DNA of 64,000 bases from Gemmatimonadota bacterium (lineage in GTDB: Bacteria; Gemmatimonadota; Gemmatimonadetes; Gemmatimonadales; GWC2-71-9): positions 23,746 through 87,745 of the forward strand of contig JBDHKN010000028.1 of assembly GCA_039586365.1 (NCBI GenBank), written 5' to 3'. The notes under the pieces are model-generated. The model did no database searches and had not been told where the DNA came from. It saw nothing but the letters and a program-made list of their open reading frames with translations. Every line of letters begins with the position of its first letter. Within the stretch, counting starts at the first letter, position 1. Shown here in pieces: positions 24,501 to 43,462 of this stretch. The position numbers and the translations under genes are program-made.

Positions 24501-24570
24501 AGGGGAAAGCGGTGGGGTTCACGGTTGCCGGGCCAAGCGGTGCCCTGGCGACCGGATTCGAAGGCGCGGT

Positions 24571-24597
24571 CGAACCCTTTTGGTGCCATATTGCGTA
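24571..24597 (+). promoter_or_regulatory. Putative ECF-sigma promoter for the DUF4097 gene
   Basis: CGAACC-N17-CGTA with a T-tract after -35; same spacing as the PadR promoters. Confidence 0.55.
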
Positions 24598-24633
24598 TAG
24601 TGAATACCAGGCAGTCAAACCGGAGCGACTGAA

Positions 24634-25482
24634 ATGAGCCCCAGACTCTACTTGATCCCGTTAGCCATGGTTGCGGTCGGTGCAGGCGTGGCGGTCAACC
24701 GTCACACGCGGGACCACACCGATCACAAGGAAGTGACGGTTGTGGTCTCACCACTGCCGCAGCAGCACGAATGGTGTAGCGAGCGCCCCAAATCCAGCCG
24801 CGGGTGGTATTGTGAGGTCCGCGAGTTCTCGTTCTCAGCCTCGGACCTGAACGCTCTGGATGCCAGCCCTAACGGTGACATTGAAATGAGAGGTTGGGAC
24901 AGCGACGCAGTGCAGGTTCTTGCCAAGGTTCAGGCCAGCGCCCGGTCGGATGCGGACGCTCATGACCTGGTATCCGTGGTCCGAATCGCGACGTCGGGTG
25001 TGAAACTCAATACCAGCGGTCCCAAGGTAGGGCGCAACGAATCGTGGTCGGTCAGTTACTGTGCGGCCGTGCCGCGGCGGTCGAATTGGTCGCTGCACGC
25101 CACTAACGGTGGGATAGCGGTAGAGGATGTGTCGGGCAATCTCGAGCTGGGGACCACCAACGGTGGCATCACCCTGAGAGCGGTCGGCGGTGACGTTCAG
25201 GGTCGCACCGTCAATGGTGGGATCAAGGCGGAGCTCGAAGGAAATGAGTGGGACGGTGCGGGGTTGAGCCTCAGGACGACGAACGGCAGCATCGACATCC
25301 TCATGTCAGGTGAATACAACGCCGTACTCGAATCCGCCACGACCAATGGCGCCATTCAAGTCGATTTCCCGGTCACGGTGAGCGGCCGGATCAGCCGTAG
25401 GTTGAACACCGAACTCGGCAACGGCGGCGCCTTGATACAGGCCGTCACGACCAACGGCGCGGTGAGGATCAGGAAGAACTAG
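24634..25482 (+). CDS. DUF4097-like beta-strand repeat protein
   Basis: Repeated (T/A)TNG(G/S/A)I motifs; N-terminal TM/signal. Confidence 0.87.
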   Translation: MSPRLYLIPLAMVAVGAGVAVNRHTRDHTDHKEVTVVVSPLPQQHEWCSERPKSSRGWYCEVREFSFSASDLNALDASPNGDIEMRGWDSDAVQVLAKVQASARSDADAHDLVSVVRIATSGVKLNTSGPKVGRNESWSVSYCAAVPRRSNWSLHATNGGIAVEDVSGNLELGTTNGGITLRAVGGDVQGRTVNGGIKAELEGNEWDGAGLSLRTTNGSIDILMSGEYNAVLESATTNGAIQVDFPVTVSGRISRRLNTELGNGGALIQAVTTNGAVRIRKN

Positions 25483-25502
25483 ATTGACGATTGACGATTG
25501 AC
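25482..25502 (+). repeat. (GATTGAC)3 heptamer array
   Basis: Begins on the last base of the DUF4097 TAG stop. Confidence 0.95.
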
Positions 25503-25824
25503 GATCGGAAATCGTCAGTCGTGGGTAATGTAACTCAACTCGGTTGCTTTCTTCGGTTTCTGACGAGCTGTTGCAGAGCCATAGCTCATGGGATCGGTGG
25601 TGGACGGGTCAATGCAAGACGGTGTCCTGGCGGCCTGCACGGTATCCAGCGGGCCTTTGACCGCATCGTTAGGCCTGCTGGACCACCTGATACTCTGCGC
25701 CTCGCACGGTAACATCCCTGTCATGTAGCCGTGCACGTCAACTCACCGGCCGGAACGACCGCAAGCCACCTTGCTGAACAGGACTTCCGAGTCTGGTCAG
25801 CAACCGGATTCAGTCACCCTACCC

Positions 25825-25858
25825 TCACTCGTAACTCGTCACTCGTCACTCGTCAATC
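25825..25858 (-). repeat. GATTGAC/GAGTGAC heptamer array (about 5 units)
   Basis: Minus strand GATTGAC GAGTGAC GAGTGAC GAGTTAC GAGTGA; encodes the last residues and stop of the hydrolase. Confidence 0.93.
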
Positions 25859-28191
25859 TCAGAGTTGAGAATCGGGTAGGCTGCCCAGTCTTTGTAGTCG
25901 AAGTGCCACCACTCGAATTCGTAGACTGAGAACCCCTCGGCTTCCATGACACGGCGCAGCAGGTCCCGGTGCCAGCGCTGGCGAGAGGTTCCGCCCGGAT
26001 AGGCCGGGTAGGAGCGTTCGGTCATCTCGTCGTAGGTGCCGACCATCTGGATCGGCTCCCCCGTGCGCGAATCGTATAGGGTGAGGTCCACCGCGCAGCC
26101 GCGGTTGTGGCGGGAACCACTCGCCGGGTTGGCGACGAAGATCTTCTTGTCTTCAGGCGTAGCGTCCCAGAACATCTTGGTCACGTACCACGGCCGATAG
26201 GCGTCGTGGATCAGGAGACCGTAGCCGTACTCTCGGAGCGCTCTGTGAGCACGCACCACTGCTTCAGCCGCGGGTCGTTGCAGGAATGCTCGCGGTTGCT
26301 GGTAGAACACGGCGCCCATGAAGTTGTCGGTGGAGGCATAGCGGATGTCGAGTTTGATGGTCGGATCGAGTTCGGTTACTTCCACCAGATCGGGTTCGCG
26401 GAACTCGCCCTGTTCCGGCGCCGGTGATGCGGCGAGAGCCTCCTGTCGCAGTTCCTCGACCGGTCGTACCGGTTCGATCTGGAAAGTGCCTTCATCCAAA
26501 CCCACGGGTCTCCGCTCGAACACCACGCTGGCCGCTTCCACCGCTGTCGCCCGGCCAGTGCTGTCACGATTGAAGAGGAGCCGTTCGCCGTGGTACAGCC
26601 CGAAGTCGGGGAACGCGAAGACGTCGGGACTCACCTCTTGCAGCGGATAGAAGAAGAACCACTCGATCAAGGCGTGGAGCTGTCCTCGGCGTTCCAGGAT
26701 GAACAGGGTGTTGTGATCCCAGCCGTATTCGCCGATCAAACCGCGCCAGCTGTCCGGGACAGCCGGGGGCGGCCGGCTGCTGGCCTGCCGCAGAGTGTCC
26801 CGCCCGATCACGATCCGGCCATCCTGTAGCAGCACGACCGTCCCCCCCTGGTCCAGCGGACCGTCGACCACCAATGTGTCGCCCCACTGACGCAACTCGA
26901 AGGCGATGCCACCGCGGTACAACAGGCCGTGCAGCCGGCCGTTCAGCTCCAAGAATTCGATCCCCGCGTCACCGACGGGGTACTCGCCCACCAAGGCGCG
27001 AATTCGCTCGTGGGGAACCGGAAGCGTTCTTCTCGGGGTCGGTAGCGGTTGGTGTTCCCGCACGGCCAGCATGCTCCTGAGCGCGAGGTCGGCGATCAGG
27101 TCAGTGACGGCATTGGCGCCATCTTTTGTGGCCACGACGATCGTGCCGACCTTCTCGTCAGGTAGCAGTGCCAGTTCGGTGGCGAAGCCGTAGATCGCAC
27201 CGCCGTGACCGATGCGGCGGTGGCCGTCCAACAGGCCGACGTTGAAGCCGAGGCCGTAACCGTTGGTGGCTCCCGCGGGAGCAAACTGGGGTTGCCACAT
27301 CGCGGCGAGGGTCTCCTGCCCGACGACGGCGGTGCCGTCGCGGGTACTCCCGGCGAACAGCACGCTCATGAAACCGCCCAGGTCGATCACCGTGGAGTAC
27401 ATGCTTCCGGCCGGCGCCATCCCCAATTGGAACGTGGGGGCCTCGAACGACCTGCCGTCGTAGGTCCACATCTGGGCGGCGGCGAGATCCTCGATCAGCT
27501 GTGGTTCCGGCTCGAATGCGCTGCGCCTCATGCCGAAGGGTGTGAGGACCGCGTCCTTGACGTACTTGGCAAAGGGAACGCCCTGCGTGCGCTCGAGTAC
27601 GTAGCCGACTGTGGCTACGCCGGCATTGGAGTACTTGATTCTGGCCTCAGGCTCGTACACCAGTGTCGTGGAGTTCAGGCTTGCCACCATCGCCGGGAGC
27701 GAAGGTTCAGTGTCGTCGAAGTAGTTGCCAACTGGTGGCTCCCGCACCAGACCAGCACGGTGGGACATGAGTTGCCGGAGTGTGATCGGTTTGTCGTAGT
27801 GGTTTTCGGGGCTGAAGTCGGGCAGGTACGTGGTGACTGGCGCATCCAGCTCCAGTTCGCCGTGTTGCACCAACCGCATCACCGCCATGTCGGTGAACAG
27901 TTTGGAGACCGATCCCACGCGGTACACCGTGTTGGCCGTAGCCGGAGTGCTGTCGCCAGGATCGGCGTAGCCGAAGCCGCGCGCCCACACGATCTCCTGA
28001 TCGTCCACCAGCGCAATGGAGACGGCGGGGATCTCCTTCACCTCCATGTGCCATTCGATGAACGGTTCGAGCAACTCAGCCACCGCCGCATAGTCCCGGC
28101 GCGGCTCAATGTCACCGCTGGCGCCACCACACGAGACAGCCCAAGGGAGGAGGATGAAGCAGCTGGACCAGTGCCTGAGGATGTCGGCCAT
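25846..28191 (-). CDS. Lipoprotein: beta-lactamase-family serine hydrolase fused to a VanX-like D-Ala-D-Ala dipeptidase
   Basis: Lipobox-like AVSC; SVSK, YSN, HGG; C-terminal DAYRP, SRHNRGCAVD, EWWHF; start 28191 or 28218. Confidence 0.9.
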   Translation of the reverse strand: MADILRHWSSCFILLPWAVSCGGASGDIEPRRDYAAVAELLEPFIEWHMEVKEIPAVSIALVDDQEIVWARGFGYADPGDSTPATANTVYRVGSVSKLFTDMAVMRLVQHGELELDAPVTTYLPDFSPENHYDKPITLRQLMSHRAGLVREPPVGNYFDDTEPSLPAMVASLNSTTLVYEPEARIKYSNAGVATVGYVLERTQGVPFAKYVKDAVLTPFGMRRSAFEPEPQLIEDLAAAQMWTYDGRSFEAPTFQLGMAPAGSMYSTVIDLGGFMSVLFAGSTRDGTAVVGQETLAAMWQPQFAPAGATNGYGLGFNVGLLDGHRRIGHGGAIYGFATELALLPDEKVGTIVVATKDGANAVTDLIADLALRSMLAVREHQPLPTPRRTLPVPHERIRALVGEYPVGDAGIEFLELNGRLHGLLYRGGIAFELRQWGDTLVVDGPLDQGGTVVLLQDGRIVIGRDTLRQASSRPPPAVPDSWRGLIGEYGWDHNTLFILERRGQLHALIEWFFFYPLQEVSPDVFAFPDFGLYHGERLLFNRDSTGRATAVEAASVVFERRPVGLDEGTFQIEPVRPVEELRQEALAASPAPEQGEFREPDLVEVTELDPTIKLDIRYASTDNFMGAVFYQQPRAFLQRPAAEAVVRAHRALREYGYGLLIHDAYRPWYVTKMFWDATPEDKKIFVANPASGSRHNRGCAVDLTLYDSRTGEPIQMVGTYDEMTERSYPAYPGGTSRQRWHRDLLRRVMEAEGFSVYEFEWWHFDYKDWAAYPILNSEIDE

Positions 28192-28220
28192 GGTGGCCTT
28201 AGAGTGTCTTGCAGCCATGT

Positions 28221-28316
28221 GATTGACGATTGACGATTGACAATTGACGATTGACGAGTGACTTCGACCCGAGCGATCACTGATCACCGATTACTAAATA
28301 CTGACAAGAATGACCG
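28221..28316 (+). repeat. GATTGAC array (6 units) plus a secondary degenerate heptamer tract
   Basis: GATTGAC x3, AATTGAC, GATTGAC, GAGTGAC; then GATCACT GATCACC GATTACT AAATACT GAC..AATGACCG. Confidence 0.93.
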
Positions 28317-28435
28317 GACCGTCAAGCTAAATTGGGTAGCGCACCTCTGGGCGGCGGCACAAGCGGTAGATCATCCAACGCCACGCTCGGCACCGCCTAC
28401 CGTGCAGCGGCAAAGGAGCGTAACGTCAGCTGCGC

Positions 28436-28462
28436 TACGATCAACGCCGCGAACGCGTGTCA
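28436..28462 (-). promoter_or_regulatory. Possible ECF promoter upstream of the hydrolase/VanX fusion
   Basis: TGACAC-N17-CGTA, one mismatch to TGAAAC. Confidence 0.45.
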
Positions 28463-28512
28463 CTGTGCGTTTGATCAGGACACTGACAATCAGGTCCGGT
28501 ATGGACCCGCGG

Positions 28513-31254
28513 TCATTCCACCGTCAACGCTTCCACCGGATCGACCCTCATCACACGCGCCGCGGGAACGAAGCTCGCTATCATCCCAACCAGAGTGAGA
28601 GCCAGCACGACCGTTGCGAATACGAATGCGTCGCGGGGGCTGACGTCATAGAGGATCTGCCCGACAGCACCGGCGGCCAGCGCCGCGAGGCATATGCCCA
28701 AACCCAACCCCATGCCAAGCTGCACTACACCTCTCCGCATCACCAGACCCACCAGTTGCATCCGCTGCGCACCGAGCGCCATGCGGATGCCGATCTCCTG
28801 CGTTCTGAGGCTCACTGCGAACGACATCACGCCGTATAGGCCCACGGCGGCGAGAAACAGCGCGAAGAACCCGAGCGCCATGAACATGGTGCTGAATATC
28901 CTGAACATCCAGGTTGCGTTCTCCATCACCCTTGCGAGCGAGAATACGTTGTAGATCGGGAGATTCGGGTCGACGGCGGCAACGGCCGCCCGCGCGTCGC
29001 TGGTGAGGGACAAGGGCTCCGCCCTGGTACGGAGGGCCATGCTGATACTCCGACCCACACTTGCCTGGGAGATCGGCCTGTAGAACCCCGCCGGACTACC
29101 GTTCAGATTGCCGATGCCCTGCATGTACAGGTCGGGGGCCAGCCCTACTACCGTAAACCACGCCTCGGTGGTGTCTCTTCTTCCCATGCGAATGCGCCCA
29201 CCAATGGCGTCACCGCCCGGGAAGAAGGTGCGCGCAAACGACTGGTTGACTACGACAACGGGCAGCGAGTTGTCTCCGTCGCCGTTGTCGAACGCCCTGC
29301 CCCTTAGAACATCTACTTCGAAGGTGCGGAAGTAGTCGGCTGTGATGACTCCCTCTCGCGCGCTTGGAAAGTCATCATCGGTTGCGTAGGTCTGACCTTC
29401 CACTTCGAAGACCAGCAGACCGTTGCCCGCGGCCGGCAGTCCGTCCGACAACGTGGCAGCCTCCACACCGGGAATCGCTTCGAGCTGTGGCAGCAGACTC
29501 TCGTAGAACTGAACTCGACTGGCGTTGTCCGGATATTCCACTTCCGGCAGCAGCACCCGGGCCGTGAAGATGTTCTCGGTGGCAAATGGCAGCTCGAGGG
29601 TGTTCATTTTCACGATGCTCTTGATCATGAGGCCAGCTCCGATCAGCAGGGCACACGACACCGCCACCTCCGCCACGACAAATCCGGCGCTCAGCCGCCC
29701 CAACTTGAAACTGGACGCACCGCGGCTCTCGTCCTTGAGCGCTTCACCCACGTCGGCACCCGATGCCTTGAGCGCCGGCACCACACTTGAGACCAGCGCG
29801 GCAATCGTGGTCATCGCGATAACGAACACGGTCACCCGATGATCCACGTCGAACCTCACCCAGAAGGGAGGAGGTGACAGCTGCATCAGCCCGTCGAGCG
29901 AACTCATGAAGAACTCACCCAGCCCGAATCCGAGCGCCCCTCCGATTGCCGCCAGAATCAGCACCTCCGTGAAGAACTGACGCATTACCCGCGCGCGGCT
30001 GGCACCGAGGGCCGTTCGCAGCGCGACCTCCCGCACGCGCGCCGACACCCGTGCGAGCAACAGGTTGGCCACATTGGAGCAGGCGATGAGCAGCACACCT
30101 ATCACCGCACCCAACATCGTGAGCATGAGGGGCTTGAACTGCTGCCCGACGAAACGAACCGTGAACCCCTCCACCGTGGCGCCAATGCCCTCGTTCGTCT
30201 CCGGATGCACCTGCTCCAAACGAGCAGCAATCGTAGCGAGCTGGCTCCTCGCTTCGTCTAGCGTGACACCCGTCTTCAAGCGTGCTATGCCGATGTACTG
30301 CGGACCCTCACCGCGCGGCGTGCTCACGGGATCGAACACGATCGGCAGCCAGACCTGCTGGCGGTCGGGAAAGCCGAACCCCTCCGGCATGACGCCGACG
30401 ATTGTGTGCCGGACTCCGTTTGCCGTAACGTTCCTTCCTATCACATCGGCCGACGACTCGAAGCGATCGCGCCACACGTCGAATCCGATGAGGACTACTT
30501 GTTCTGCCCCCGGCAAATCCTCCCCTTCGCGGAAAGTTCTTCCCAGCACAGGACTGACCTGCAGCACATCGAACAGATTCGCCGTGGACACGCCGCCCCG
30601 ATAGCGTTCCGGCCGGCCCTCCGAGCCCGACAGGTTGATGGTGAGTTCCCAGCCTCCGAAGATCGCGAATTCATCGAACACGTTTTGCTGGTCGCGCCAA
30701 TCCGCGTAGTCGTGGACCGTGATGCCAATCGGATTCGCATCCCGAGCCAGATTGGTACGCTCGACGGCCACGACGCGCTCCGCCTGAGGCACCGGCAGCC
30801 CTTTCCAAAGAGCGCCGTTCACCATGCGGAACACGGTGGTCGTGAGACCGATGCCGAGCCCGAACGTGCCGATGACTATGAGTGAGAGACTCGGGTGCTT
30901 TAGCAGCATCCGAACGCCGAAGCGGATGTCCTTGATGAAGGCTTCCATGTTAGTCCACACCGAACGCGAGCGACCTGATGCGCGTGGTGCTCGCGGGTTA
31001 GAGCTGAACCGGACTTGGAATCGCTCTGTGACTGAATTGCAGAGCAGGGAGACGTACTCCCGGAAACATAGGGTTTGCCGCCCCAGCCACCGACGGTCCT
31101 GCGTCGCTTCGCGGTGCAAGTCAAAGAACAGAGTGATCATGCGCTCACGGTGCTCCGAGCCAAACTCTCTTGGCAAGCACAGCCTCGCGAGCCGAGCGTA
31201 ACAGCGCACCGCTCTGGGGCTCTCCACCTGTCCATCGCTCGATTCTCGCTTCAT
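28513..31254 (-). CDS. Duplicated MacB-type ABC permease (ADOP-like) with N-terminal prefix domain
   Basis: DIRFGVRMLLK, VLLIACSNVANLLL, GLYGVMSF..RTQEIGIRMALGA, VDPVEAL. Confidence 0.94.
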   Translation of the reverse strand: MKRESSDGQVESPRAVRCYARLARLCLPREFGSEHRERMITLFFDLHREATQDRRWLGRQTLCFREYVSLLCNSVTERFQVRFSSNPRAPRASGRSRSVWTNMEAFIKDIRFGVRMLLKHPSLSLIVIGTFGLGIGLTTTVFRMVNGALWKGLPVPQAERVVAVERTNLARDANPIGITVHDYADWRDQQNVFDEFAIFGGWELTINLSGSEGRPERYRGGVSTANLFDVLQVSPVLGRTFREGEDLPGAEQVVLIGFDVWRDRFESSADVIGRNVTANGVRHTIVGVMPEGFGFPDRQQVWLPIVFDPVSTPRGEGPQYIGIARLKTGVTLDEARSQLATIAARLEQVHPETNEGIGATVEGFTVRFVGQQFKPLMLTMLGAVIGVLLIACSNVANLLLARVSARVREVALRTALGASRARVMRQFFTEVLILAAIGGALGFGLGEFFMSSLDGLMQLSPPPFWVRFDVDHRVTVFVIAMTTIAALVSSVVPALKASGADVGEALKDESRGASSFKLGRLSAGFVVAEVAVSCALLIGAGLMIKSIVKMNTLELPFATENIFTARVLLPEVEYPDNASRVQFYESLLPQLEAIPGVEAATLSDGLPAAGNGLLVFEVEGQTYATDDDFPSAREGVITADYFRTFEVDVLRGRAFDNGDGDNSLPVVVVNQSFARTFFPGGDAIGGRIRMGRRDTTEAWFTVVGLAPDLYMQGIGNLNGSPAGFYRPISQASVGRSISMALRTRAEPLSLTSDARAAVAAVDPNLPIYNVFSLARVMENATWMFRIFSTMFMALGFFALFLAAVGLYGVMSFAVSLRTQEIGIRMALGAQRMQLVGLVMRRGVVQLGMGLGLGICLAALAAGAVGQILYDVSPRDAFVFATVVLALTLVGMIASFVPAARVMRVDPVEALTVE

Positions 31255-31260
31255 CTACCC

Positions 31261-31587
31261 TCAGAGGATTACGCCTTTGTCCCGGGCCATCCCGGCCACT
31301 GCCGTGAGCCACTCCGCTTCCGTTCGCAACACTCTCTTACCCCTGGCCGTGATGCTGTAATAGTTGCGGCGCTCGTCGTCGAGTTCGGGTACCGGGCGCT
31401 CCTCCGATTCCTCAATGAGCCCGTCATTCAGCATCCGCTTGATCGCGGTGTAGAGCGTGCTCGCCGTCAAGCGCACTCTTCCGTCGGTGTGCCGCTGAAC
31501 GTCGCGGATGATGGCGTAGCCGTGCAGTTGCTTGTCGCTCAGCGAGAGCAGGATCTGGAAGGCTTGGGGCGAGAGTGTCTTGGACAA
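31261..31587 (-). CDS. PadR family transcriptional regulator
   Basis: LHGYAI, STLYTAIKRM, RRNYYSITARG. Confidence 0.93.
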   Translation of the reverse strand: MSKTLSPQAFQILLSLSDKQLHGYAIIRDVQRHTDGRVRLTASTLYTAIKRMLNDGLIEESEERPVPELDDERRNYYSITARGKRVLRTEAEWLTAVAGMARDKGVIL

Positions 31588-31650
31588 GCCAAACCTCTAT
31601 CTCGAATCATGTAATAGTACTGCGTAGCGCGATATAGTATTCATCAAATC

Positions 31651-31677
31651 TACGTATTGTCTGGTGAGGAGGTTTCA
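31651..31677 (-). promoter_or_regulatory. ECF-type promoter of PadR cassette 1
   Basis: TGAAAC-N17-CGTA. Confidence 0.75.
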
Positions 31678-31792
31678 GGTCAGTGGGGGGCCGCAAGGGG
31701 CGTGCGGACGCGACGGGTCGTCCTGCGAAGTTAGCTAGCCGTCCAGATGTGTTTAGCCGACGTCGGGCCGGGTCCCGACGGTGGCGATCGCC

Positions 31793-31819
31793 TGAAACCT
31801 CCTCCGGAGACAATCCGTA
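31793..31819 (+). promoter_or_regulatory. ECF-type promoter of PadR cassette 2
   Basis: TGAAAC-N17-CGTA. Confidence 0.75.
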
Positions 31820-31888
31820 TGGTAAAGATGTAGGGGTAATCCCTATAGCTTTGCCCCCTGGAATCTGACATCAGCCACCGGAGGCTCC

Positions 31889-32245
31889 ATGAGCGCGCGG
31901 GATCCCACAGAGCTGCTACCGTTAACCACGCTCACCTATCACATACTCCTCGCACTGGCCGGCACGCCGCGCCACGGCTATGGGATCATCAAGGAGGTGT
32001 CCAACCGGACCGATGGGTGCGTGGAGCTGGAGACCGGTACCCTGTACGCGGCCATCAAGCGGCTGCGCGACGAGCAGTTGATCGAGGTCGTGCCAAGATC
32101 CGAGCGGCCGCCAGAGGAGGACAGCCGCCGCAGGAACTACCGTCTCACCAAGTTCGGCCAGGCTGTGCTGAAGGCCGAGTCGCAGCGGCTAGCTCAACTG
32201 GTGGGAATGGCGGTGGAGAAGAGTGTGCTGCCGGCGTGGGATTGA
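31889..32245 (+). CDS. PadR family transcriptional regulator
   Basis: RHGYGII, GTLYAAIKRL, RRRNYRLTKFG. Confidence 0.93.
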   Translation: MSARDPTELLPLTTLTYHILLALAGTPRHGYGIIKEVSNRTDGCVELETGTLYAAIKRLRDEQLIEVVPRSERPPEEDSRRRNYRLTKFGQAVLKAESQRLAQLVGMAVEKSVLPAWD

Positions 32246-32302
32246 CGATTGATGATTGACGATTGACGAGTGACGAGTGACGATTGACGAGTGACGAATG
32301 AC
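32240..32302 (+). repeat. GA(T/G/A)TGAC heptamer array (9 units)
   Basis: First unit supplies Asp and the TGA stop of PadR; lies between PadR and its permease. Confidence 0.95.
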
Positions 32303-32342
32303 CGATCATGACCGCTCACCGCTCTGTGGCGGAGACGCAGCG

Positions 32343-35009: not shown

Positions 35010-35102
35010 CGATTGACGATTGACGATTGACGAATGACGAGTGATGAGCTGATTCCTGATCGCTGATTATTAATAACTGAATACTGACGACAACAATGAC
35101 CG
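35004..35102 (+). repeat. GATTGAC array (6 units) plus a secondary degenerate heptamer tract
   Basis: GATTGAC x4, GAATGAC, GAGTGAT; then GATTCCT GATCGCT GATTATT AATAACT GAATACT GAC..AATGACCG. Confidence 0.93.
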
Positions 35103-35106
35103 CTCC

Positions 35107-35288
35107 ATCCAACTGGCGTGGGGATGGGGTTCGCACTTGTGGCCGGGTTGGCCCCGGCCATGGGGAATCTGTTGTTTGACGCCGATCTGTGGGATTGGAG
35201 GATCTACTCGGTGATCGCTTTCACTCTGTTCCTGGCGGGCCTCGCGGCGTCATTGATCCCGGCGCTGCAAACGCTGCGATACGACTGA
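35107..35288 (+). pseudogene. C-terminal remnant of an ADOP-type permease
   Basis: IQL, then a frameshift to VGMGFALVAGLAPAMGNLLFDADLWDWRIYSVIAFTLFLAGLAASLIPALQTLRYD*; resembles the last TM helices of the neighbouring permeases but lacks the RATRVDP-like segment. Confidence 0.75.
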
Positions 35289-35300
35289 CTAATCCCAATT

Positions 35301-35328
35301 GTCACTCGTCAATCGTCAATCGTCAATC
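35301..35328 (-). repeat. GATTGAC array (4 units)
   Basis: Minus strand GATTGAC x3, GAGTGAC, overlapping the permease TGA. Confidence 0.93.
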
Positions 35329-38041
35329 ACTCCGCCCGCAACACCTCCTGTGGATCAACCCTGACCGCCCGCAGTGCTGGCACCACACACGCGATCAATC
35401 CGACCGCTACGAGGCAGAGGCTCACACTGGCAAACGTGACCGCGTCCCTAGCGGAGACGCCGAACAGGAGACTACTGACAATCCTTGTGCCCGCGAAGCC
35501 ACCCGTGAGTCCGAGGACGATCCCGATCGCCACCAGCGACATCCCCTTCCGGAGCACGAGTCCGATTATGCTTGGAGGCGCTGCCCCCATTGCCACTCTT
35601 ATTCCCAGCTCGCGGGTGCGCTGTCTCACGAAGTAAGCCAGCACACCGTACAGCCCCGTCGACGCTAGGACCACTGCTACAGCCGCGAACAGAGCCACGA
35701 GTATCATCCTGAAGCGCGGCTGCGACAGCGAGTTCGCAATGCGTGTCTCCATGTTCTGGAATCCCGAGATCGGTATCTCCCGGTCCACCTCCCACACCGC
35801 CTCGCGCAACGCCGGTGCTATTTCGGTCGGATTTCCGGCGGTCCGCACCATGAGTTGCAGCCTCTGAGGACCGACCTGACGCGCCGGGATGTAGAACACG
35901 TTGGGTACGTCTGCGGCCAGCCCGAACTCCCTCACGTCACCCACGACGCCAACCACGTCCCAATTCGCATCCCACAGGACCATCTGCTTGCCCAGCGGAT
36001 CTTCGTCCGGAAAGAACCGGTTCGCCATGGTCTGGCCGATTATCATGACCAGCGTGGAGTTGGGCCCGTCCAGCGCCGAGAAGTCACGGCCCGCGAGGAT
36101 GGGGATCCCCATGGTCGCGAAGTAGCCCTCCGATATCATCCTGCGGTCACCCGCCGATTGATTGCGGTCGGCAGTACTTGCCGGCGGCCGGTCAGCCGGA
36201 TAGACGGTATTCCAGGTGCCACCACTCCGGATCGGCTGTTGATCGATGGAGCCGACCGACACCACGCCTGGCAGCGCTGCAACTTGCTGATGTATCAGCG
36301 ACCAGGCTTGCTCGATCTCTTCATTGGACCGGTACTTCCAACTCGGCAGCTGCGCATCTGCTTGGAGCAACCGCTGCGCCTGGAACCCGGGATCGACCCC
36401 CTGCAGCCGCAAGTAGCTCCGCACCAGCAGACCGGATGCTATCATCAGCATCAGTGACAGAGCAACTTGTGTGACCACCAGCGTACTCCTGAAGCCCGAC
36501 TTCCCCTGGCTGCTACCGCGCATGCCACCGACCCTGAGAGCATCCGCGAGTGAGAGGCTGGTTCCTCTCAGTGCCGGCACGACTCCGAAAAGGATGCTCG
36601 TAGCTAGGGAGAGAATGAACGCGAATCCCAGCACCCTAGCATCCAATCCCAACTCCTGCAAGCGAGGCAACGTTCCCGGCCCAAACGACTTGAGAGCGTC
36701 CATCCCGAGCAGTGCCAGTATCACGCCGACACCACCACCCAGAAGTGCGACCAACACGCTTTCGGTCAGCAACAGCCGCACTACTCTGCCTCGTACTGCG
36801 CCCAGCGAGAACCGCACAGCTATTTCGGGGATTCTGGTGGCAGCCCGAGCGAGCGCCAGCGAGGCCACGTTCGCGCACGCGATCAGCAGGACCAGTGAGA
36901 CCAGGCCGAGCATGATGAACAGGACGGTTCTCGCACCTGCGAAGAGCCGCTCGTGTAGCGATTGGAGCCGCACACTCCATCCTTGGTTGGTCTCCGGATA
37001 CGCTTCTGCGATGCGCTGGGCGATCATCTGCATCTGCCCCTGTGCCTGCTCGATGGTCATGCCTTCCGCCAACCGGCCTATCAGATTGAAGTTGTTGTTT
37101 CCTCGGCTCTGCGTGAACGGATCTCTGGCTTGCATTGGGAACAACAGGCCCACTGCGCTCGGGAAATTGAAATCCTGTGGCATGACACCGACTATCTGAT
37201 ATGGCTCCCCGTTGATCGTAATTGAAGTGCCGACGGCCGTCTGATCATTTCCGAATCGTCTCTGCCAGAAGCCGTGTGAGATGACTACGACGTTCTGCTC
37301 GCCGGTGCGTTCCTCTTCCAGCAAGAAGGATCGACCCAGTTGCGGGGCGACGCCCAACGTGGAGAAGAAGTTGTACGATACCGTCGTACTGGGAACGCGT
37401 TCCGGTTCGTCACGCCCAGTGATGATGGCCTGCGGTGTGAACACCAGCATTGCGGCTACCGACTTGAGCGCATCTGCCTGTTCGCGAAAATCCCAGTAGT
37501 CCAGTGCGGATGTGGAGTTGCTCATGACTCCCCGCTCTTCATTCATGCTCGAGATCCAAACGAGTTCCTCGGGATCTTCGAGCGGGAGCGGTCTCAGCAC
37601 AACCGAGTTCAGCAGACTGAACATCAGCGTGACCGCACCGATGCCGATGGCGAGCACCAGCACGCTAGCCAGGGTGAATCCGGGGCTGCGTCTGAAGCTG
37701 CGGGACGCAAAACGGATGTCGTTCCATGAGTCTTTCATGATGAAACCCCTCGAAGCTCTGCCTCCAGTGGCGGGGCCGCTCGAGTGCACCGGCCCGGGTT
37801 TTTGGCGGCGGTGCGCGCCGCGGCGCGTCAGATACCGCAAGCAGAGCGGCGGCAGCTGACTCCAGTACCACAGGCCCGCGCGCAGCCGCACTGCCCGACT
37901 AGTGGGATCCCGTTCCATCAGGCTGCAATAGGCTTCGTGCAGATCGCCGAGCACGGTGTCCCGCACCATGCCTCGGGGGAGGCAGGCAGCCAGCAGCGCC
38001 TGGGCTGCGCGGGGAGGCACTGCCTTGCGTACTGGTCTCAT
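35327..38041 (-). CDS. Duplicated MacB-type ABC permease (ADOP-like) with PP..GD..E..WYW prefix domain
   Basis: DIRFASRSFRRSPGF, LVLLIACANVA, RTRELGIRVAMGA, VDPQEVLRAE; ATGA overlap with PadR. Confidence 0.94.
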   Translation of the reverse strand: MRPVRKAVPPRAAQALLAACLPRGMVRDTVLGDLHEAYCSLMERDPTSRAVRLRAGLWYWSQLPPLCLRYLTRRGAHRRQKPGPVHSSGPATGGRASRGFIMKDSWNDIRFASRSFRRSPGFTLASVLVLAIGIGAVTLMFSLLNSVVLRPLPLEDPEELVWISSMNEERGVMSNSTSALDYWDFREQADALKSVAAMLVFTPQAIITGRDEPERVPSTTVSYNFFSTLGVAPQLGRSFLLEEERTGEQNVVVISHGFWQRRFGNDQTAVGTSITINGEPYQIVGVMPQDFNFPSAVGLLFPMQARDPFTQSRGNNNFNLIGRLAEGMTIEQAQGQMQMIAQRIAEAYPETNQGWSVRLQSLHERLFAGARTVLFIMLGLVSLVLLIACANVASLALARAATRIPEIAVRFSLGAVRGRVVRLLLTESVLVALLGGGVGVILALLGMDALKSFGPGTLPRLQELGLDARVLGFAFILSLATSILFGVVPALRGTSLSLADALRVGGMRGSSQGKSGFRSTLVVTQVALSLMLMIASGLLVRSYLRLQGVDPGFQAQRLLQADAQLPSWKYRSNEEIEQAWSLIHQQVAALPGVVSVGSIDQQPIRSGGTWNTVYPADRPPASTADRNQSAGDRRMISEGYFATMGIPILAGRDFSALDGPNSTLVMIIGQTMANRFFPDEDPLGKQMVLWDANWDVVGVVGDVREFGLAADVPNVFYIPARQVGPQRLQLMVRTAGNPTEIAPALREAVWEVDREIPISGFQNMETRIANSLSQPRFRMILVALFAAVAVVLASTGLYGVLAYFVRQRTRELGIRVAMGAAPPSIIGLVLRKGMSLVAIGIVLGLTGGFAGTRIVSSLLFGVSARDAVTFASVSLCLVAVGLIACVVPALRAVRVDPQEVLRAE

Positions 38042-38370
38042 TGTTGCTCCAGTATCGAGTCCAGCCCCTCCCACAGTTGCAACCAGGCGGTACGCGATCG
38101 CCGCACTGCGGCAAGCCCGGCAGGAGTCACTGTCAGGTATCGCTTGGGCTTCCCGCCGCGCCGGGGCGTCGGGTCCCCAAGCTGTGAAGTGAGCATGCCC
38201 TTTTCTTCCAGCCGGTCGAGTGTCACGTAGAGGGCTCCACGCGACACTGTGCGGCCGACTCGTTCGCTCAGCTCTTGCAGCACGTTGGTACCGAAGGCCT
38301 CACCGTTCAGTTGCAGCACGGCGAGCAGGATCATCTGTTCCAGTTCGCCGAGATATCCGGTTCGCTTCAT
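38038..38370 (-). CDS. PadR family transcriptional regulator
   Basis: LGELEQMILLAV, GALYVTLDRLEEKG, RGGKPKRYLTVTPAG. Confidence 0.93.
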   Translation of the reverse strand: MKRTGYLGELEQMILLAVLQLNGEAFGTNVLQELSERVGRTVSRGALYVTLDRLEEKGMLTSQLGDPTPRRGGKPKRYLTVTPAGLAAVRRSRTAWLQLWEGLDSILEQQ

Positions 38371-38421
38371 GGTTCCGCGCCAGTATAGTGACAGGTGAGC
38401 CTCATCCAATCATACAAAATA

Positions 38422-38448
38422 GACGCAGGCAGTGAGAAAAAGGTTTCA
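38422..38448 (-). promoter_or_regulatory. ECF-type promoter of PadR cassette 3
   Basis: TGAAAC-CTTTTT..(N17)-CGTC. Confidence 0.72.
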
Positions 38449-38483
38449 GATTGACGATTGACGATTGACGAATGGCGATTGAC
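38449..38483 (+). repeat. GATTGAC array (5 units)
   Basis: GATTGAC x3, GAATGGC, GATTGAC; abuts the -35 hexamer of the minus-strand promoter. Confidence 0.93.
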
Positions 38484-38587
38484 GGTCGGCAGGTGCCACG
38501 GGAGAGTCCGCACCGCCATTTTGATCCCGTTGTGCGCGGGTCTGGTACTCCAGATTGGACGGCAACGTGCAGATTGTGCAGGTGTCA

Positions 38588-38953
38588 ATGAACCGGTTCG
38601 ATCTCAGCAATAGGTTGGTCGAGTTCGCGGTCTCGACTTGCCGACTGGCGGTGGAGTGTAGCAGAGACAGGGTGACCGGCCATATCACTGTTCAGCTCAC
38701 CCGCTGTGGTACGGCACCGGCGGCGCACTATGCAGAAGCCGTGGATGCGGAGTCGCGACGAGACTTCATCCACAAGATGAAGCTGGCACTCAAGGAATTA
38801 CGTGAGTCGCTGGTCTGGCTGCAGATTGTTGAGAGACTTGGCTTGACTCAGGGCCAGCTGGTTCATTCAGTGATCGCTGAATGCAACGAACTGACAGCCA
38901 TCTTCGTAGCAGGCGTAGCCACAGCCAGGGGCAATTCAAGGACTGATGATTGA
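38588..38953 (+). CDS. Four-helix-bundle protein (23S rRNA IVP / Avd-like family)
   Basis: DLSNRLVEFA, QLTRCGTAPAAHYAEA, ESRRDFIHKMKLALKELRESLVWL, ECNELTAIF. Confidence 0.92.
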   Translation: MNRFDLSNRLVEFAVSTCRLAVECSRDRVTGHITVQLTRCGTAPAAHYAEAVDAESRRDFIHKMKLALKELRESLVWLQIVERLGLTQGQLVHSVIAECNELTAIFVAGVATARGNSRTDD

Positions 38954-38982
38954 CGACTGACGAATGACGAATGACGAACGAT
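38941..38982 (+). repeat. GANTGAC array (6 units) at the end of the four-helix-bundle gene
   Basis: GACTGAT GATTGAC GACTGAC GAATGAC GAATGAC GAACGAT; contains the stop codon. Confidence 0.9.
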
Positions 38983-39017
38983 TCAGTTTGTTGGCCGCCT
39001 CTAAAATCGCCCCATGC

Positions 39018-39059
39018 CTCACTCGCAAATCGTCAATCGTCAATCGTCAATCGTCAATC
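39018..39059 (-). repeat. GATTGAC array (6 units)
   Basis: Minus strand GATTGAC x4, GATTTGC, GAGTGAG; supplies Asp and the stop of the permease. Confidence 0.94.
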
Positions 39060-41738
39060 TCTGAGCGCGCTTACCGGATCGACCTTGGTCGCCCTGCGGG
39101 CGGGCAGGTAGCTGGCTATGAGGGTGGCCACTGTGACGAGTAGGGCGACGCTGGCAAGTGTTAGCGGGTCGGCTGGGCTGACCTCGAACAGGAGACTCCG
39201 TATCACTCGGGAGCCAGCCAGAGCCAGCGCAAGCCCTATGGCAAGGCCGATCCCCGCCATTGCCAGTCCGCGCCGCAACACACTGCGCAGGACGTCGCTC
39301 GCTCCCGCGCCCAGCGCCATACGAATACCGATCTCGTTGCTGCGTTGTTGCACTGCGTATGCGAGCACGCCGTAGATGCCGATGATTGCCAGCAACGCGG
39401 CCAGCGCAGAGAGGCAGCCAAACACGATCATGGCGAAGCGGGGTGCGGAGACCGCAGCGGAGCCGCTGATCGCTTCCTCTAGGCTGAACACACTGACCGG
39501 GAGATCGGAATCCAGCGACCACACGGCCTCCCGTATAGCGGGTGCGAGCGCCTCAGGTCCCAGTGCCGACTTGACGATGATGAATTGGTACCAGTAGGGG
39601 ATCTGTGCAAACGGCACGTAATACTTGGGGAAGGGGCGGGAGTTGAGTCGGTAGCGCACATTCCCGGCCACTCCCACCACGGTGCGCCAGATAGAGTCAC
39701 CGGGTACCGGCACCATCACGCGCCGTCCGATGGGATCAACGCCAGGCCAAAAGCGCTCCGCCATCGCGCGGTTGATGATGATTGCCGCTGGAGCATCCTC
39801 CGTGTCTTCGGCTGTGAAGCTGCGTCCGGCCAACAACGGAATCCCCATGGTCGACAGGTAACTCGGTGTGATGCTCGCTCTGTGAACCGTTGTCTCGACC
39901 TCACCATCGGGAGTCTCGATGAGGGTGGGCGGAGACGACCAACCCCCGACGATCGGCATCTGACTCGCGCGTGCGAAATCCTGCACCCCGGGGATCGCCG
40001 CCATCCGTTGGTCCAGGTCTCGGAACAACCCTCGCGTCGTGTCGCCGTAGTCACGATACTGCGCCGGCAAGTTGATGCTGCTGATCAGCAGACCCTGAGG
40101 GGCAAATCCGGGGTCGACCGCGGTCAGGCGTTGCAGGCTGCGAACGAACAGACCAGTGCCCGCCAGTAGCACGAAAGCCAGCGCAACTTCCGCTACCACC
40201 AGTGCAGCGTGCGTGCGGTGCGTGCGCCGTCCGCCTGCATGTCCCCTGCCGCCGTCCTGCAATACTTCAACGACCGGTGTGCGGATGGAGCGTATAGCTG
40301 GCAACAGTCCGATGAGGACTCCTGTCGCCACGGCCAAGCCTGCAGCGAACAGCAACAGCCGGTAATCGACCGCGATCTCCGCGGCGCGTGGGAGGCCCCC
40401 TGGAAACGCCGCGGTAAATGGCCGCAAGCTGAAAATGGCGATGGCGCATCCGGCCAAACCACCTGCCAGAGACAGCAGCATGCTCTCACTGAGGTTTTGC
40501 AGCAGCAGCCTGTCCCGCTCCGCGCCCAGTGCCTGGCGCACGCCCAACTCTCGGCGCCGTTCGGTGGCCCGAACCAGGAGCAGGTTCGCGATGTTGGCAC
40601 ACGCGATCAACAACACGAGACCGACCGCACCCATGAGCAGGTACAGACCGGCGCGCGCGCCGGCCACGACCAGTTCTCGCCGCTGCACCAAACCGATCCC
40701 GTGTTCGACTTCCTCAGGATGTAGCTCACCTATGCGGCGGGCTACGGCATCCATTTCGCGCTGCGCCTGGCCGAGCGTAACACTCGGCTTGAGCCGGGAG
40801 ATGACCTGGAGGTTACCCGCGTTGCGCATGGTCTGTTGCTTGATCCCCTCATCGAGAATTGCCCACAGACTCTCATCCATGCCCAGGAACTGGAAACCCG
40901 GCGGCATCACGCCGACGATCTCGTGAGTCACGCCGTTGAGGCCAATGGTTTGTCCCAGTACGTCAGGATCGGAGCCGTACCGGCCTTGCCAGGTACTGTG
41001 GCTCAGGATCACTACCCGCGGCGCTTCGACCTCGTCATCCTCAGAGCCAAACAACCGGCCCAGCATGGGGCGTGCTCGCAGAGCTGCGAAAACACCTGAC
41101 GATACCTCCGTCGCCGAGATTCGCTCGGGCTGATCGCCGCCGGTCACGGTGTACCCGACACCGCGATACGCGCCGGCGCTCTCGAATACCCGGCTGAGCT
41201 CAGCCCAGTCGAGGAACACCGGGTAGGGTACTGCATAAAGACCCGCCAGCCTCGAGAGGTCGGGATTCCTTCCAGTGACTTCGGGATCCACCCGGAACGC
41301 GTTGACCAGACGGTCCGACTCCGGATAGGGCAATGGCTTGAACAGGACCCCATCCACGACACTGAAGATCATAGTGTTGGCACCGATCCCCAGACCCAAC
41401 GTGATTATGGCGGCCAGGGCGAACCCACGCCTGTTGCACAACGTGCGGATGGCTAGCCGCGAGTCGTACAGTACCGTCGCCAATGTGTTGCGTAACCAGC
41501 TCGGCCGCGGTGAGCGGGGGACGAACCGCTGGTGGGATCCTAAAGTGAGTCGCGCAACCACGGAAAGGACATGTTTCCAGTACCACAGGTTCGCAGCTAT
41601 GCGCGAACCCGATCGCACCTGCTCCAGATACTCCTCACGTGCGTCACCGACGATACTCCTACCGGCGACTCCGGCCGGCACTGACCTCTTGAGCAGCCAC
41701 TCGGCCGGGCCGGGCGGGTCCAAGATGTCATGTGTCAT
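39054..41738 (-). CDS. Duplicated MacB-type ABC permease (ADOP-like) with PP..GD..E..WYW prefix domain
   Basis: TLGLGIGANT, LVLLIACANIANLLL, RSNEIGIRMALGA, PARRATKVDP; ATGA overlap with PadR. Confidence 0.94.
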   Translation of the reverse strand: MTHDILDPPGPAEWLLKRSVPAGVAGRSIVGDAREEYLEQVRSGSRIAANLWYWKHVLSVVARLTLGSHQRFVPRSPRPSWLRNTLATVLYDSRLAIRTLCNRRGFALAAIITLGLGIGANTMIFSVVDGVLFKPLPYPESDRLVNAFRVDPEVTGRNPDLSRLAGLYAVPYPVFLDWAELSRVFESAGAYRGVGYTVTGGDQPERISATEVSSGVFAALRARPMLGRLFGSEDDEVEAPRVVILSHSTWQGRYGSDPDVLGQTIGLNGVTHEIVGVMPPGFQFLGMDESLWAILDEGIKQQTMRNAGNLQVISRLKPSVTLGQAQREMDAVARRIGELHPEEVEHGIGLVQRRELVVAGARAGLYLLMGAVGLVLLIACANIANLLLVRATERRRELGVRQALGAERDRLLLQNLSESMLLSLAGGLAGCAIAIFSLRPFTAAFPGGLPRAAEIAVDYRLLLFAAGLAVATGVLIGLLPAIRSIRTPVVEVLQDGGRGHAGGRRTHRTHAALVVAEVALAFVLLAGTGLFVRSLQRLTAVDPGFAPQGLLISSINLPAQYRDYGDTTRGLFRDLDQRMAAIPGVQDFARASQMPIVGGWSSPPTLIETPDGEVETTVHRASITPSYLSTMGIPLLAGRSFTAEDTEDAPAAIIINRAMAERFWPGVDPIGRRVMVPVPGDSIWRTVVGVAGNVRYRLNSRPFPKYYVPFAQIPYWYQFIIVKSALGPEALAPAIREAVWSLDSDLPVSVFSLEEAISGSAAVSAPRFAMIVFGCLSALAALLAIIGIYGVLAYAVQQRSNEIGIRMALGAGASDVLRSVLRRGLAMAGIGLAIGLALALAGSRVIRSLLFEVSPADPLTLASVALLVTVATLIASYLPARRATKVDPVSALRD

Positions 41739-42070
41739 AGCTTTGGCTCTCCCAGCACTCCTTCCAGCCCGTGCCAGAACCGGAACAGTGCGTCACGTGA
41801 GGTCCGCAGCGCGGCCACGCCGCTACGTGTCACCCTGAAGCGGCGGCGCGGATGCCCGCCCCGGCCCGGCGTCGCGTCCTCCACGTCCCAGTCGAGGTAC
41901 CCCTTCTCTTCGAGACGCTCGAGGGTCTTGTACAGGGCTCCCCGGGACACCCGCCGGCCAACGCGCCGGTCCAACTCGTGCAAGACCGACAGCGCGAACC
42001 CGTCGTCACCCAGCTGTAGAATGGCCAGCAGGACCAACTGCTCGAATTCACCCAGCGAAAGAGACGTCAT
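41735..42070 (-). CDS. PadR family transcriptional regulator
   Basis: LGEFEQLVLLAI, GALYKTLERLEEKG, RGGHPRRRFRVT. Confidence 0.93.
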   Translation of the reverse strand: MTSLSLGEFEQLVLLAILQLGDDGFALSVLHELDRRVGRRVSRGALYKTLERLEEKGYLDWDVEDATPGRGGHPRRRFRVTRSGVAALRTSRDALFRFWHGLEGVLGEPKL

Positions 42071-42093
42071 GGCAGCTCCAGAGTCGGCATTGT

Positions 42094-42107
42094 CTACATC
42101 GATGTAG
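42094..42107. promoter_or_regulatory. Perfect 14-bp palindrome, candidate PadR operator
   Basis: CTACATCGATGTAG between the promoter and the PadR start. Confidence 0.6.
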
Positions 42108-42133
42108 GGAATGTAGGCATCGAATACATACCC

Positions 42134-42160
42134 TACGAGGGTGGAGCGGAGGAGGTTTCA
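42134..42160 (-). promoter_or_regulatory. ECF-type promoter of PadR cassette 4
   Basis: TGAAAC-N17-CGTA. Confidence 0.75.
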
Positions 42161-42209
42161 GATTTCAGATTGACGATTGACGATTGACGATCGACGATCG
42201 ACGATTTGC
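42161..42209 (+). repeat. GATTGAC array (7 units)
   Basis: GATTTCA, GATTGAC x3, GATCGAC x2, GATTTGC; abuts the -35 hexamer. Confidence 0.93.
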
Positions 42210-42282
42210 GAATGTGGGCTGGGGAAGCCGCGCTGCCGTTATGAGCGAGCTGTGAGTGGATCCGGTACGATGTTGTACGTCA

Positions 42283-42945
42283 TCACGCCAAGCTTCCCCC
42301 GCGGGCCCACGTTGCCAGGGCAGCCAGATAGCTTGCTTCCTTGAGATTCGCTGGCAGGCCGAACCGGTCTTTTGCCGTGAGCACCACCTCACGAGCTGTG
42401 GCGACTGCTGCTGGTATGGAGGCGTCGGAAAGTCCCATGCCATCCTCGATCCCCAAGGTCTCGAGCCGCTCGGGCGACCGTATCTCAGCCAACTCCACGA
42501 AGGCCGCGCTGTCCTCATGGCTCCAGCGGAACAGCCGGCGCCACTTCTGGACGGTTATGACCTGAACTCCTGTTGCGTCCAACTCCGCCAGTAGCTCATC
42601 GCAGTCCCAGGTTCCATCCTTGGGTCCTATCTCGCGGCACAGCTCGGCGCTCACTCTGGCAACGACGCTCGGCGGCAAGGGAAACGGGTGATCTTCCTCC
42701 GGCCGTTCGATCCAGAGACCCATCGCTTCCGCGGGGTCCCTGCGGTAGCATTGCTTGAACTTGAGACTCACCCCGCCCGGCCAGGATCGGAGCTTGATGT
42801 TGGTGCCGAGGCCCGGCACCCAGAGATATCGGTCCGTGACGGACCGGGTGGTGGGATAGGCGAGCGGAAGCTGCACGATGCGGTCTCTCAGGTGCGGATC
42901 GAGCCGGCCGAAGCAGCGCCACTCCCAGTGCATTCCGTAGGGCAA
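42283..42945 (-). CDS. Hypothetical protein, CYTH-like
   Basis: WEWR at the N-terminus, DRYL, IKLR, LKFK, KWRR, VELAE; pattern resembles tunnel-fold enzymes. Confidence 0.55.
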   Translation of the reverse strand: MPYGMHWEWRCFGRLDPHLRDRIVQLPLAYPTTRSVTDRYLWVPGLGTNIKLRSWPGGVSLKFKQCYRRDPAEAMGLWIERPEEDHPFPLPPSVVARVSAELCREIGPKDGTWDCDELLAELDATGVQVITVQKWRRLFRWSHEDSAAFVELAEIRSPERLETLGIEDGMGLSDASIPAAVATAREVVLTAKDRFGLPANLKEASYLAALATWARGGSLA

Positions 42946-42955
42946 GGGAGGATGG

Positions 42956-42992
42956 CGGCTAACAGCTATCAGCTGTCAACCGATAGCTGTCA
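42956..42992 (-). repeat. TGAYAGC-family heptamer tract
   Basis: Minus strand TGACAGC TATCGGT TGACAGC TGATAGC TGTTAGC, starting at the DUF2934 stop. Confidence 0.7.
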
Positions 42993-43277: not shown

Positions 43278-43462
43278 GTTGCTCTGCCTCCAGTTACATT
43301 GAGTGGGTTTGCATTCGGCAGGCGTCTTCCCACGGTAGACGCTTCCGGAATATCGTCGGCAAGATAACAGGCCCGTTATGATTTGGTAGTGGTTGTGTTC
43401 CGGATCGGGATCGGCTCTGCCCCGACCCGCGCAGCAAATGTCCACACTCAGCCCGCGACACC

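Follow-up and report, generated by a model that had tools for sequence, protein, structure and literature searches.

Genes and heptamer arrays at the locus

The stretch of DNA considered here (the window) comprises 64,000 nucleotides (nt) from a Gemmatimonadota bacterium (assembly GCA_039586365.1, contig JBDHKN010000028.1, positions 23,746 to 87,745 of the forward strand) and carries ten tandem arrays of the heptamer GATTGAC around a four-helix-bundle gene of the TIGR02436/PF05635 family. The gene neighbours in this cluster are four ADOP permeases, four PadR genes, a beta-lactamase-fold/dipeptidase gene, a DUF4097 gene, and a single TIGR02436/PF05635 gene. The arrays were originally noticed in a reading of the letters alone (the sequence-only reading). 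All ten are found with refined positions, and the start of the last one is corrected from 42161 to 42168, as 42156–42171 is a TTTCAGA doublet. The arrays, also called arms below, and the features associated with them are as follows.

25482–25502, + strand: GATTGAC arm of 3 units; its first base coincides with the G in the TAG that ends the DUF4097 gene (24634–25482).
25503–25823, no strand assigned: payload of about 320 nt that looks like a MITE (miniature inverted-repeat transposable element), with imperfect terminal inverted repeats and no convincing open reading frame (ORF).
25824–25858, − strand: GATTGAC arm of 5 units, providing the TGA stop of the beta-lactamase-fold/D-Ala-D-Ala dipeptidase gene.
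28221–28262, + strand: GATTGAC arm of 6 units, lying 2 nt outside the peptidase gene's likely ATG (28218).
28263–28312, no strand assigned: inner extension, a drifted period-7 tract homologous to 35046–35100 and to the arm of L134, a syntenic metagenome contig.
32240–32302, + strand: GATTGAC arm of 9 units, providing the TGA stop of PadR gene 31889–32245.
35004–35045, + strand: GATTGAC arm of 6 units, providing the TGA stop of ADOP permease 32343–35009.
35046–35300, + strand: payload of the 35004/35328 pair, consisting of an inner extension and a short ORF (35124–35288).
35301–35328, − strand: GATTGAC arm of 4 units, situated on the native stop (TGA) of ADOP permease 35327–38041.
38422–38448, − strand: conserved TGAAAC-N17-CGTC box upstream of PadR gene 38038–38370.
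38449–38483, + strand: promoter-side GATTGAC arm of 5 units, abutting the TGAAAC box with zero gap.
38588–38953, + strand: four-helix-bundle gene (TIGR02436/PF05635), 121 amino acids from the ATG, with an in-frame TTG at 38555.
38941–38975, + strand: GATTGAC arm of 5 units, providing the stop of the four-helix-bundle gene and pairing with 39018–39059.
39018–39059, − strand: GATTGAC arm of 6 units, providing the stop of ADOP permease 39054–41738.
42168–42209, + strand: solo GATTGAC arm of 6 units adjoining the TTTCAGA doublet and a TGAAAC box upstream of PadR gene 41735–42070.

The location of the arrays at gene and promoter edges is borne out: seven meet or overlap a stop codon, another is 2 nt ahead of a start codon, and the remaining two border on a promoter-like box. 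Ten arrays fall within 16.7 kb, whereas random placement of the genome's 47 arrays at gene ends, repeated 2000 times, never yielded more than 5, and the cluster is real and other than an ordinary microsatellite cluster. The three facing pairs described earlier stand, and a fourth is added between 38941 and 39018–39059 (fold z −6.6). Folding of the pair 25482/25858 gives a predicted z of −4.2, and that of 38440–39070 a z of −4.8 (20 shuffles), with predicted stems of about 24–30 bp. The inner extension was considered as a pairing partner of its own arm and rejected, with a fold z of +0.3 at 28263 and −1.4 at 35004. In alignment, the ends at 28221 and 35004 and the L134 arm have a composite sequence of about 90 nt in common, so these three are copies of one end. 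The short ORF at 35124–35288 resembles, by eye, a C-terminal remnant of an ADOP permease.

The TGAAAC box at arm 38449, which we take to be an extracytoplasmic function (ECF)-type promoter, is conserved in all five sequences aligned, and arm 42168 sits one TTTCAGA unit from the TGAAAC box upstream of PadR gene 41735–42070. Boxes of the form TGAAAC/TGTAAC-N16/17-CGTC occur upstream of PadR genes at 38422–38448, at 42130–42160, and in loci L134–L143. The gene at 21637–22248 resembles an ECF sigma factor by eye.

The four-helix-bundle protein

The protein encoded at 38588–38953 matches TIGR02436 with 65.8 bits (cut-off 24) and PF05635 with 46.2 bits (cut-off 33.8) in hidden Markov model searches with curated cut-offs, and its closest named relatives include Gemmatimonadota. 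Its structure model (mean predicted confidence, pLDDT, 92) consists of four long helices. The best structural matches of the model are 2rld and 2gsc, of S23p-type fold and five chains each, with template modelling (TM) scores of 0.74–0.89. A weaker match is to Avd (4dwl; TM 0.72/0.80, 15% identity, E 0.055), the accessory protein whose relation to this family had been stated in the sequence-only reading. PF22296 is not matched by the window protein, and no bAvd gene was found in the window's genome (86% complete).

In the window, the gene is flanked by two arms of the same orientation (38449 and 38941), the second of which pairs with 39018–39059. The window's genome carries a second TIGR02436 gene at C73:44664–44963, whose arms are of another unit, GGGAGCN. 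By eye, no array adjoins the GxxExxY gene on contig C69, and a PF05635 match on C92 is weak and below the cut-off.

Distribution, position and polarity in the genome

The window's genome (G000) comprises 5.44 Mb on 132 contigs and is 86% complete, and its genes were called with our own simple caller. Perfect runs of at least three copies number 47 at period 7 (22 of them with the unit GATTGAC), 16 at period 6, and only 1 at period 8. Mapping across the genome yields 47 GATTGAC arrays on 25 of the 132 contigs, well beyond the 17-kb region originally described. All but one of them (46/47) lie outside genes, compared with 73% of random spots falling inside genes. The array starts within −20 to +3 nt of the stop of the gene reading into it in 20 of the 47 cases and in the opposite orientation in none (0/47), while 5.7% of random non-coding spots satisfy the same criterion. 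The arrays are therefore polarised, as had been proposed, and random orientation is contradicted. At stop offsets of −5, −12, and −19 the TGA of the unit itself serves as the stop. Relative to three same-genus orthologues, the permease at 39054 stops one codon early, and the dipeptidase/peptidase gene product is about 7–12 residues shorter at its end than four complete orthologues.

A unit containing TGA could gather at stops simply by surviving a stop-codon filter, and units free of stops bear on this point. The stop-free GAACATC of the same-genus genome G002, whose variants such as GAACATT are still able to create TGA, lies inside genes in 0 of 44 arrays (26 stretches chosen around the G002 matches). 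A stop is found within 30 nt behind its 5′ end in 21 of 39 cases versus 3 at the 3′ end, and 10 of the 44 arrays start exactly one base past a stop codon. The stop-free GAGCGGG of the window's genome likewise has a stop behind the 5′ end in 29 of 41 cases versus 8 at the 3′ end. Because these stop-free units keep their polarity and are equally polarised, a stop-codon filter is not the whole cause of the position, and as the sole cause it is rejected.

The sequence-only reading also held that the arrays are perfect at the gene junction and decay distally. This is found in the window's genome, where the junction-proximal half is the more perfect in 22 arrays versus 8, with 11 ties (41 arrays of at least 4 units, p = 0.016), and in the GAACATC arrays of G002 (30:6, 5 ties). 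As a general rule it is ruled out by the polarity in G007 (6:16, 4 ties) and in the GAGCGGG family (15:19, 10 ties), and the decay is modest.

Other repeats: GGGAGCN/GAGCAGA forms a second family of heptamers, polarised at gene ends in the same way and present in the window at 56176–56201, 56401–56424, and 58455–58487 and at about 65 sites in the genome. Decamer arrays of the AAGGGCGGTA and GAGGGACGGT types occur in the window at 44472–44511 and at about 40 sites in the genome, for example C42:13868–13977, in facing pairs or stacked with heptamer arrays, and no gene was found to accompany them.

Neighbouring genes: The genome contains 77 ADOP-like permease genes and 46 PadR-like genes. A GATTGAC array lies within 120 nt of 8 of the 77 ADOP genes, compared with 51 of 4511 called genes. 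The arrays at C75:135–162, C75:7782–7809, and locus L281 directly follow a sequence resembling a tRNA 3′ end, and the same flank also comes before a GAACATC array in G002.

Alternative alleles at orthologous sites

Alleles were surveyed in contigs, rather than reads, from five of 24 sequencing runs, of which X1 and X2 are possibly from one sampling campaign. The site between arms 38449 and 39059 exists in four states across genomes and contigs. In the window, the TIGR02436 gene lies within the 568 letters between 38461 and 39030. In an X1 contig (720 nt, depth 7.9), 306 other letters join 38461 to 39030, between flanks about 99% identical to the window (1 difference in 212 nt and 3 in 202 nt). 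The promoter-side arm of X1 has 2 units compared with 5 in the window, and X2 reproduces both junctions, distributed over two contigs. X3 contains 38380–38565 of the gene allele (its 5′ leader) with an 8-nt duplication. The lack of contig cover over 38605–38871 in four runs is uninformative by itself. In L134 (83–84% identity), both arms are present at the same bases with a spacer of only about 30 nt. In L135 and G006 (80–81% identity), the promoter-side array is absent, and the upstream neighbour is different or none is shown. Relative to L134, the window state would fit an insertion of the gene with one arm into an existing pair.

Other orthologous positions vary as well. L134 has a different spacer of 152 nt at the position of 35046–35300. 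At the stop orthologous to 35327, GATTGAC is found in L134, GAACATC in G002, and GAATGTA in G007, and no array is visible in the other 9 of 12 rows, including G006. Empty and differently filled alleles are thus found where the sequence-only reading called for a search for empty sites, and the possibility it raised, that orthologous loci are identical and fixed, did not hold. The absence of a 7-kb block (28317–35300) from L134 was considered and withdrawn, as the L134 arm is homologous to both the 28221 and the 35004 ends; the outer flank of the L134 arm differs from the peptidase gene. One X1 contig also contains a 27-nt insertion at window position 24521, in the intergenic region before the DUF4097 gene.

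The MITE-like payload

The payload at 25503–25823 has relatives at C4:21407–21506, at C43:71210–71563, and in the X1/X2 allele of 38461–39030. The 306-nt insert of this allele resembles window 25563–25828 (in the longest piece, 91 of 108 letters agree), and its inverted ends are about 26 nt long. Both the payload and the 306-nt allele are short and non-coding, carry terminal inverted repeats, and occur in several copies, as MITEs do. The copies on C4 and C43 are partial, and the end motif also occurs on C73 (40883) and C102 (23845). Elements of this family, with GGGTASGGTAAC-type ends, mostly lie directly inside heptamer arms.

Neither a target-site duplication nor an autonomous partner or transposase for the MITE-like element was seen in the window's genome. 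The payload DNA gives one weak 32-nt match only in 60 relatives, and its end motif gives 0 matches in viral contigs. An Rfam search of 24000–43500 returned one sub-threshold snoRNA and nothing else, including no Gut-1 and no rRNA. Degenerate 21-nt tandem repeats encoding heptad peptides (EASNRR-like) are present at C73:41060–41290, C102:23370–23610, C92:22044–22385, and C82:9155–9373, and those on C73 and C102 adjoin the MITE-like end motif.

Protein family and heptamer units

Of 108 family genes, 56 have a period-7 array within 220 nt on the upstream side and 61 on the downstream side, compared with 43 of 1529 control windows; two loci of this count were on the wrong strand. In a corrected and enlarged set, in which some loci are duplicated, an arm is found at 99 of 140 rows, and 55 of 59 two-armed rows are inverted. 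The enrichment beside four-helix-bundle genes that the sequence-only reading anticipated is thus seen far above the control windows. In the window's genome, arrays are most numerous on the two contigs bearing TIGR02436 genes, each with 15 of the 157.

The units are specific to lineages. GATTGAC has 72 matches in G000 and 3 in 150 relatives. GAACATC has 108 matches in G002 and 1 in the other seven same-genus genomes. Among the eight same-genus genomes, GAATGTA has 95 matches in G007, 19 in G005, 12 in G004, and single matches in G003 and G006. The dispersed unit is the one at the genome's own four-helix-bundle gene in G000, G002, G005, and G007; sister species thus each spread their own heptamer, usually the one flanking their own gene. 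Moreover, identical units recur with one protein clade across several phyla. Distance between units correlates with distance in the protein tree, with a rho of 0.30 for 54 Gemmatimonadota rows and 0.41 for 99 rows (0/999 shuffles), in trees that exclude L064 (frameshifted) and L114 (the window itself). As the rows are related to one another, the correlation demonstrates at least co-inheritance, and not yet co-evolution. A Fisher comparison of a motif in 25/30 versus 2/24 is descriptive only, since the motif was picked post hoc.

Relation to known systems

23S rRNA intervening sequences: In Coxiella and Leptospira, members of the same family, the S23p genes, lie inside terminal inverted repeats. 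S23p genes are reported to lie within a 28-bp stem, described for Coxiella, that is cut by RNase III (PMC4990558), comparable to the stems of about 24–30 bp predicted here. Complementary arms that form a long stem are likewise found here, by fold prediction only (z −4.8 and z −6.6). Unlike these intervening sequences, the window gene lies between PadR and ADOP genes and not inside 23S rRNA, its arms are heptamer arrays, dozens of gene-less copies exist, and the payload differs between strains.

Intergenic heptamers: Cyanobacterial short tandemly repeated repetitive sequences are intergenic heptamer repeats. GGGAATC heptamers of Xanthomonas and arrays of Nostoc are described as intergenic, biased to stop codons, and arranged in convergent pairs (PMC4692102), and TAACTGA heptamers are described in Beggiatoaceae (PMC4679880; also PMC4853749). 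The GATTGAC arrays resemble these published heptamers in being of an over-represented period 7, intergenic, about 4–6 units long, strand-biased at gene ends toward stops and the antisense side of starts, often convergent, and lineage-specific. The roles proposed in the parts available are G-quadruplex or regulatory ones, with no source given for the repeats. MacGregor 2015 explains the positions by stops in all three frames (PMC4679880), an explanation that fails for the stop-free units described above; the text of that paper, as far as available, contains no occurrence of four-helix, S23, or intervening sequence.

REPIN-RAYT systems: Repetitive extragenic palindromes (REP) and their hairpin-forming pairs (REPIN) are short, lineage-specific intergenic repeats in inverted pairs, and they flank a low-copy REP-associated tyrosine transposase (RAYT) gene that is thought to spread them. 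In contrast, the gene flanked here encodes a helical bundle without a known catalytic motif rather than an HUH/Y1 transposase, and the arms are tandem heptamers instead of palindromes. No HUH/Y1 transposase flanked by the repeats was found in the window's genome, where one weak Y1_Tnp match (C56:45961–46296) has no array in the 1.3 kb around it.

Diversity-generating retroelements: Avd is described as a pentamer contacting an RNA stem-loop (bioRxiv 10.1101/2023.10.23.563531). The locus differs from these retroelements in having no reverse transcriptase (RT) gene beside the accessory gene. The single RT gene found in the 86% complete genome lies on another contig (C91:31876–33117), no array is seen beside it, and its 3′ end resembles that of a group II intron.

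Both kinds of component are already published, namely intergenic heptamer arrays and rRNA intervening sequences bearing S23p, and the locus combines the architecture of the latter with the former. A full-text literature search, judged by titles and the first lines of abstracts and with most subscription journals outside its scope, turned up no paper that connects the protein family with heptamer arrays or with an exchange of cargo.

Proposed mechanism and competing explanations

It is marginally probable, in our judgement, that the arrays are the arms and footprints of a mobile, hairpin-armed cassette, in which the four-helix-bundle gene would lie between inverted heptamer arrays. By analogy with Avd, the four-helix-bundle protein, presumably a pentamer, may recognise the arm that belongs to it, probably in the form of an RNA hairpin, and a host or mobile-element enzyme would join the outer end of the arm to new sites. 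Joins would persist only outside or at the extreme edge of functional sequence; some may clip the final codons of a gene, the TGA of the unit then acting as the stop. Later recombination between arms, together with other small elements inserting into them, would swap or delete the payload and leave pairs without a gene, solo arms, and pairs of mixed family. The PadR-ADOP cluster may be a region of high gene turnover in which many junctions have accumulated. In support of this cassette, the sequences show where the arrays sit and which way they point, the existence of alternative alleles, units particular to each species, and period-7 arms flanking the majority of the gene's relatives. The suggestion of the sequence-only reading that the arrays are ends or footprints of an element tied to this gene is strengthened in particular by the polarity and the alternative alleles.

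Several observations weigh against the cassette. Profile searches of the 86% complete genome tie no catalytic enzyme to the arrays, and no target-site duplication is seen. At the threshold used, 41 of 140 family rows have no arm, and the decamer family has no associated four-helix-bundle gene in the window's genome. In G004 (69% complete), the arms of the gene are GAAGGCT, which occurs only at the gene (3 matches), and the dispersed arrays are GAATGTA (12). The unit-tree correlation is drawn from related and in part duplicated rows, and simple co-inheritance may account for it. Moreover, Rehm 2015 places similar repeats in stable regions away from insertion sequences (PMC4692102). A same-family partner within 700 nt exists for only 15 of the 47 arrays, and 9 of 23 facing pairs are mixed-family and unable to pair. 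Because partners are so few and mixed pairs are present, two other explanations keep some weight.

The arrays may be long simple repeats made by the host that lengthen by slippage and persist at the edges of genes as hairpins, harmless or regulatory, with the gene and the MITE-like element as passengers in safe spots. We regard this as rather unlikely, although a MITE-like element is found between arms too, the match of gene and unit breaks down in G004 and in the decamer family, and a gene landing in a local array would show the local unit anyway; published heptamers with the same stop bias and inverted pairs have not been linked to mobile elements (PMC4692102). It accounts poorly for two paralogues in one genome with two different units, identical units accompanying one protein clade in several phyla, the composite end of about 90 nt at three places, three different units at one orthologous stop codon, and stop-free units as polarised as stop-bearing ones. 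Telomerase-like addition of units one by one at the gene-proximal end, by an RT with the four-helix-bundle protein and a short RNA template, would instead make the arms its products. Such addition would suit the 32 of 47 arrays with no same-family partner within 700 nt, the existence of facing pairs of mixed family and of stacks of arrays with unlike units, the more perfect proximal halves in G000 and G002, the 10 of 44 G002 arrays that begin one base after a stop, and the Avd-like fold predicted by the model. The sequence-only reading had offered directional repeat addition as its alternative, and such addition by an RT is not supported so far: the sole RT found is group II intron-like with no array seen beside it, two arrays share a longer, copied composite end, and the decay polarity is absent or reversed in G007 and the GAGCGGG family. 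Arms also abut promoter boxes, which ribosome-linked targeting leaves unexplained, and no 7-nt array indel occurs among the surveyed contigs, though contigs often break at arrays. We therefore consider unit addition improbable. An assembly artefact or chance as the source of the cluster and the alternative allele is very improbable. The allele does come from short-read contigs, and X1 and X2 may share a campaign, but the left junction shares only 13 nt of repeat, two assemblies give identical junctions, the independent assembly of L134 has its arms at the same bases, and control expectations are far exceeded.

Implications for the protein family and heptamer repeats

As a bolder and more tentative extension of the mobile cassette, which we think possible but doubtful, the locus may represent a new mobile class in which each protein clade recognises its own heptamer and drives the insertion of arms at gene ends and promoter edges. 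The protein would then lie at the origin of heptamer repeats in bacteria as well as of rRNA intervening sequences. The arms would act as cassette-exchange sites through which accessory genes, PadR-ADOP modules among them, are shuffled with no transposase or integrase dedicated to the task. The locus offers one orthologous site in four states together with sister species that have different protein-heptamer pairs, and therefore swaps of protein A against arm B are directly feasible. If true, it would give one answer to two puzzles, the origin of lineage-specific heptamer repeats and the role of S23p/four-helix-bundle proteins.

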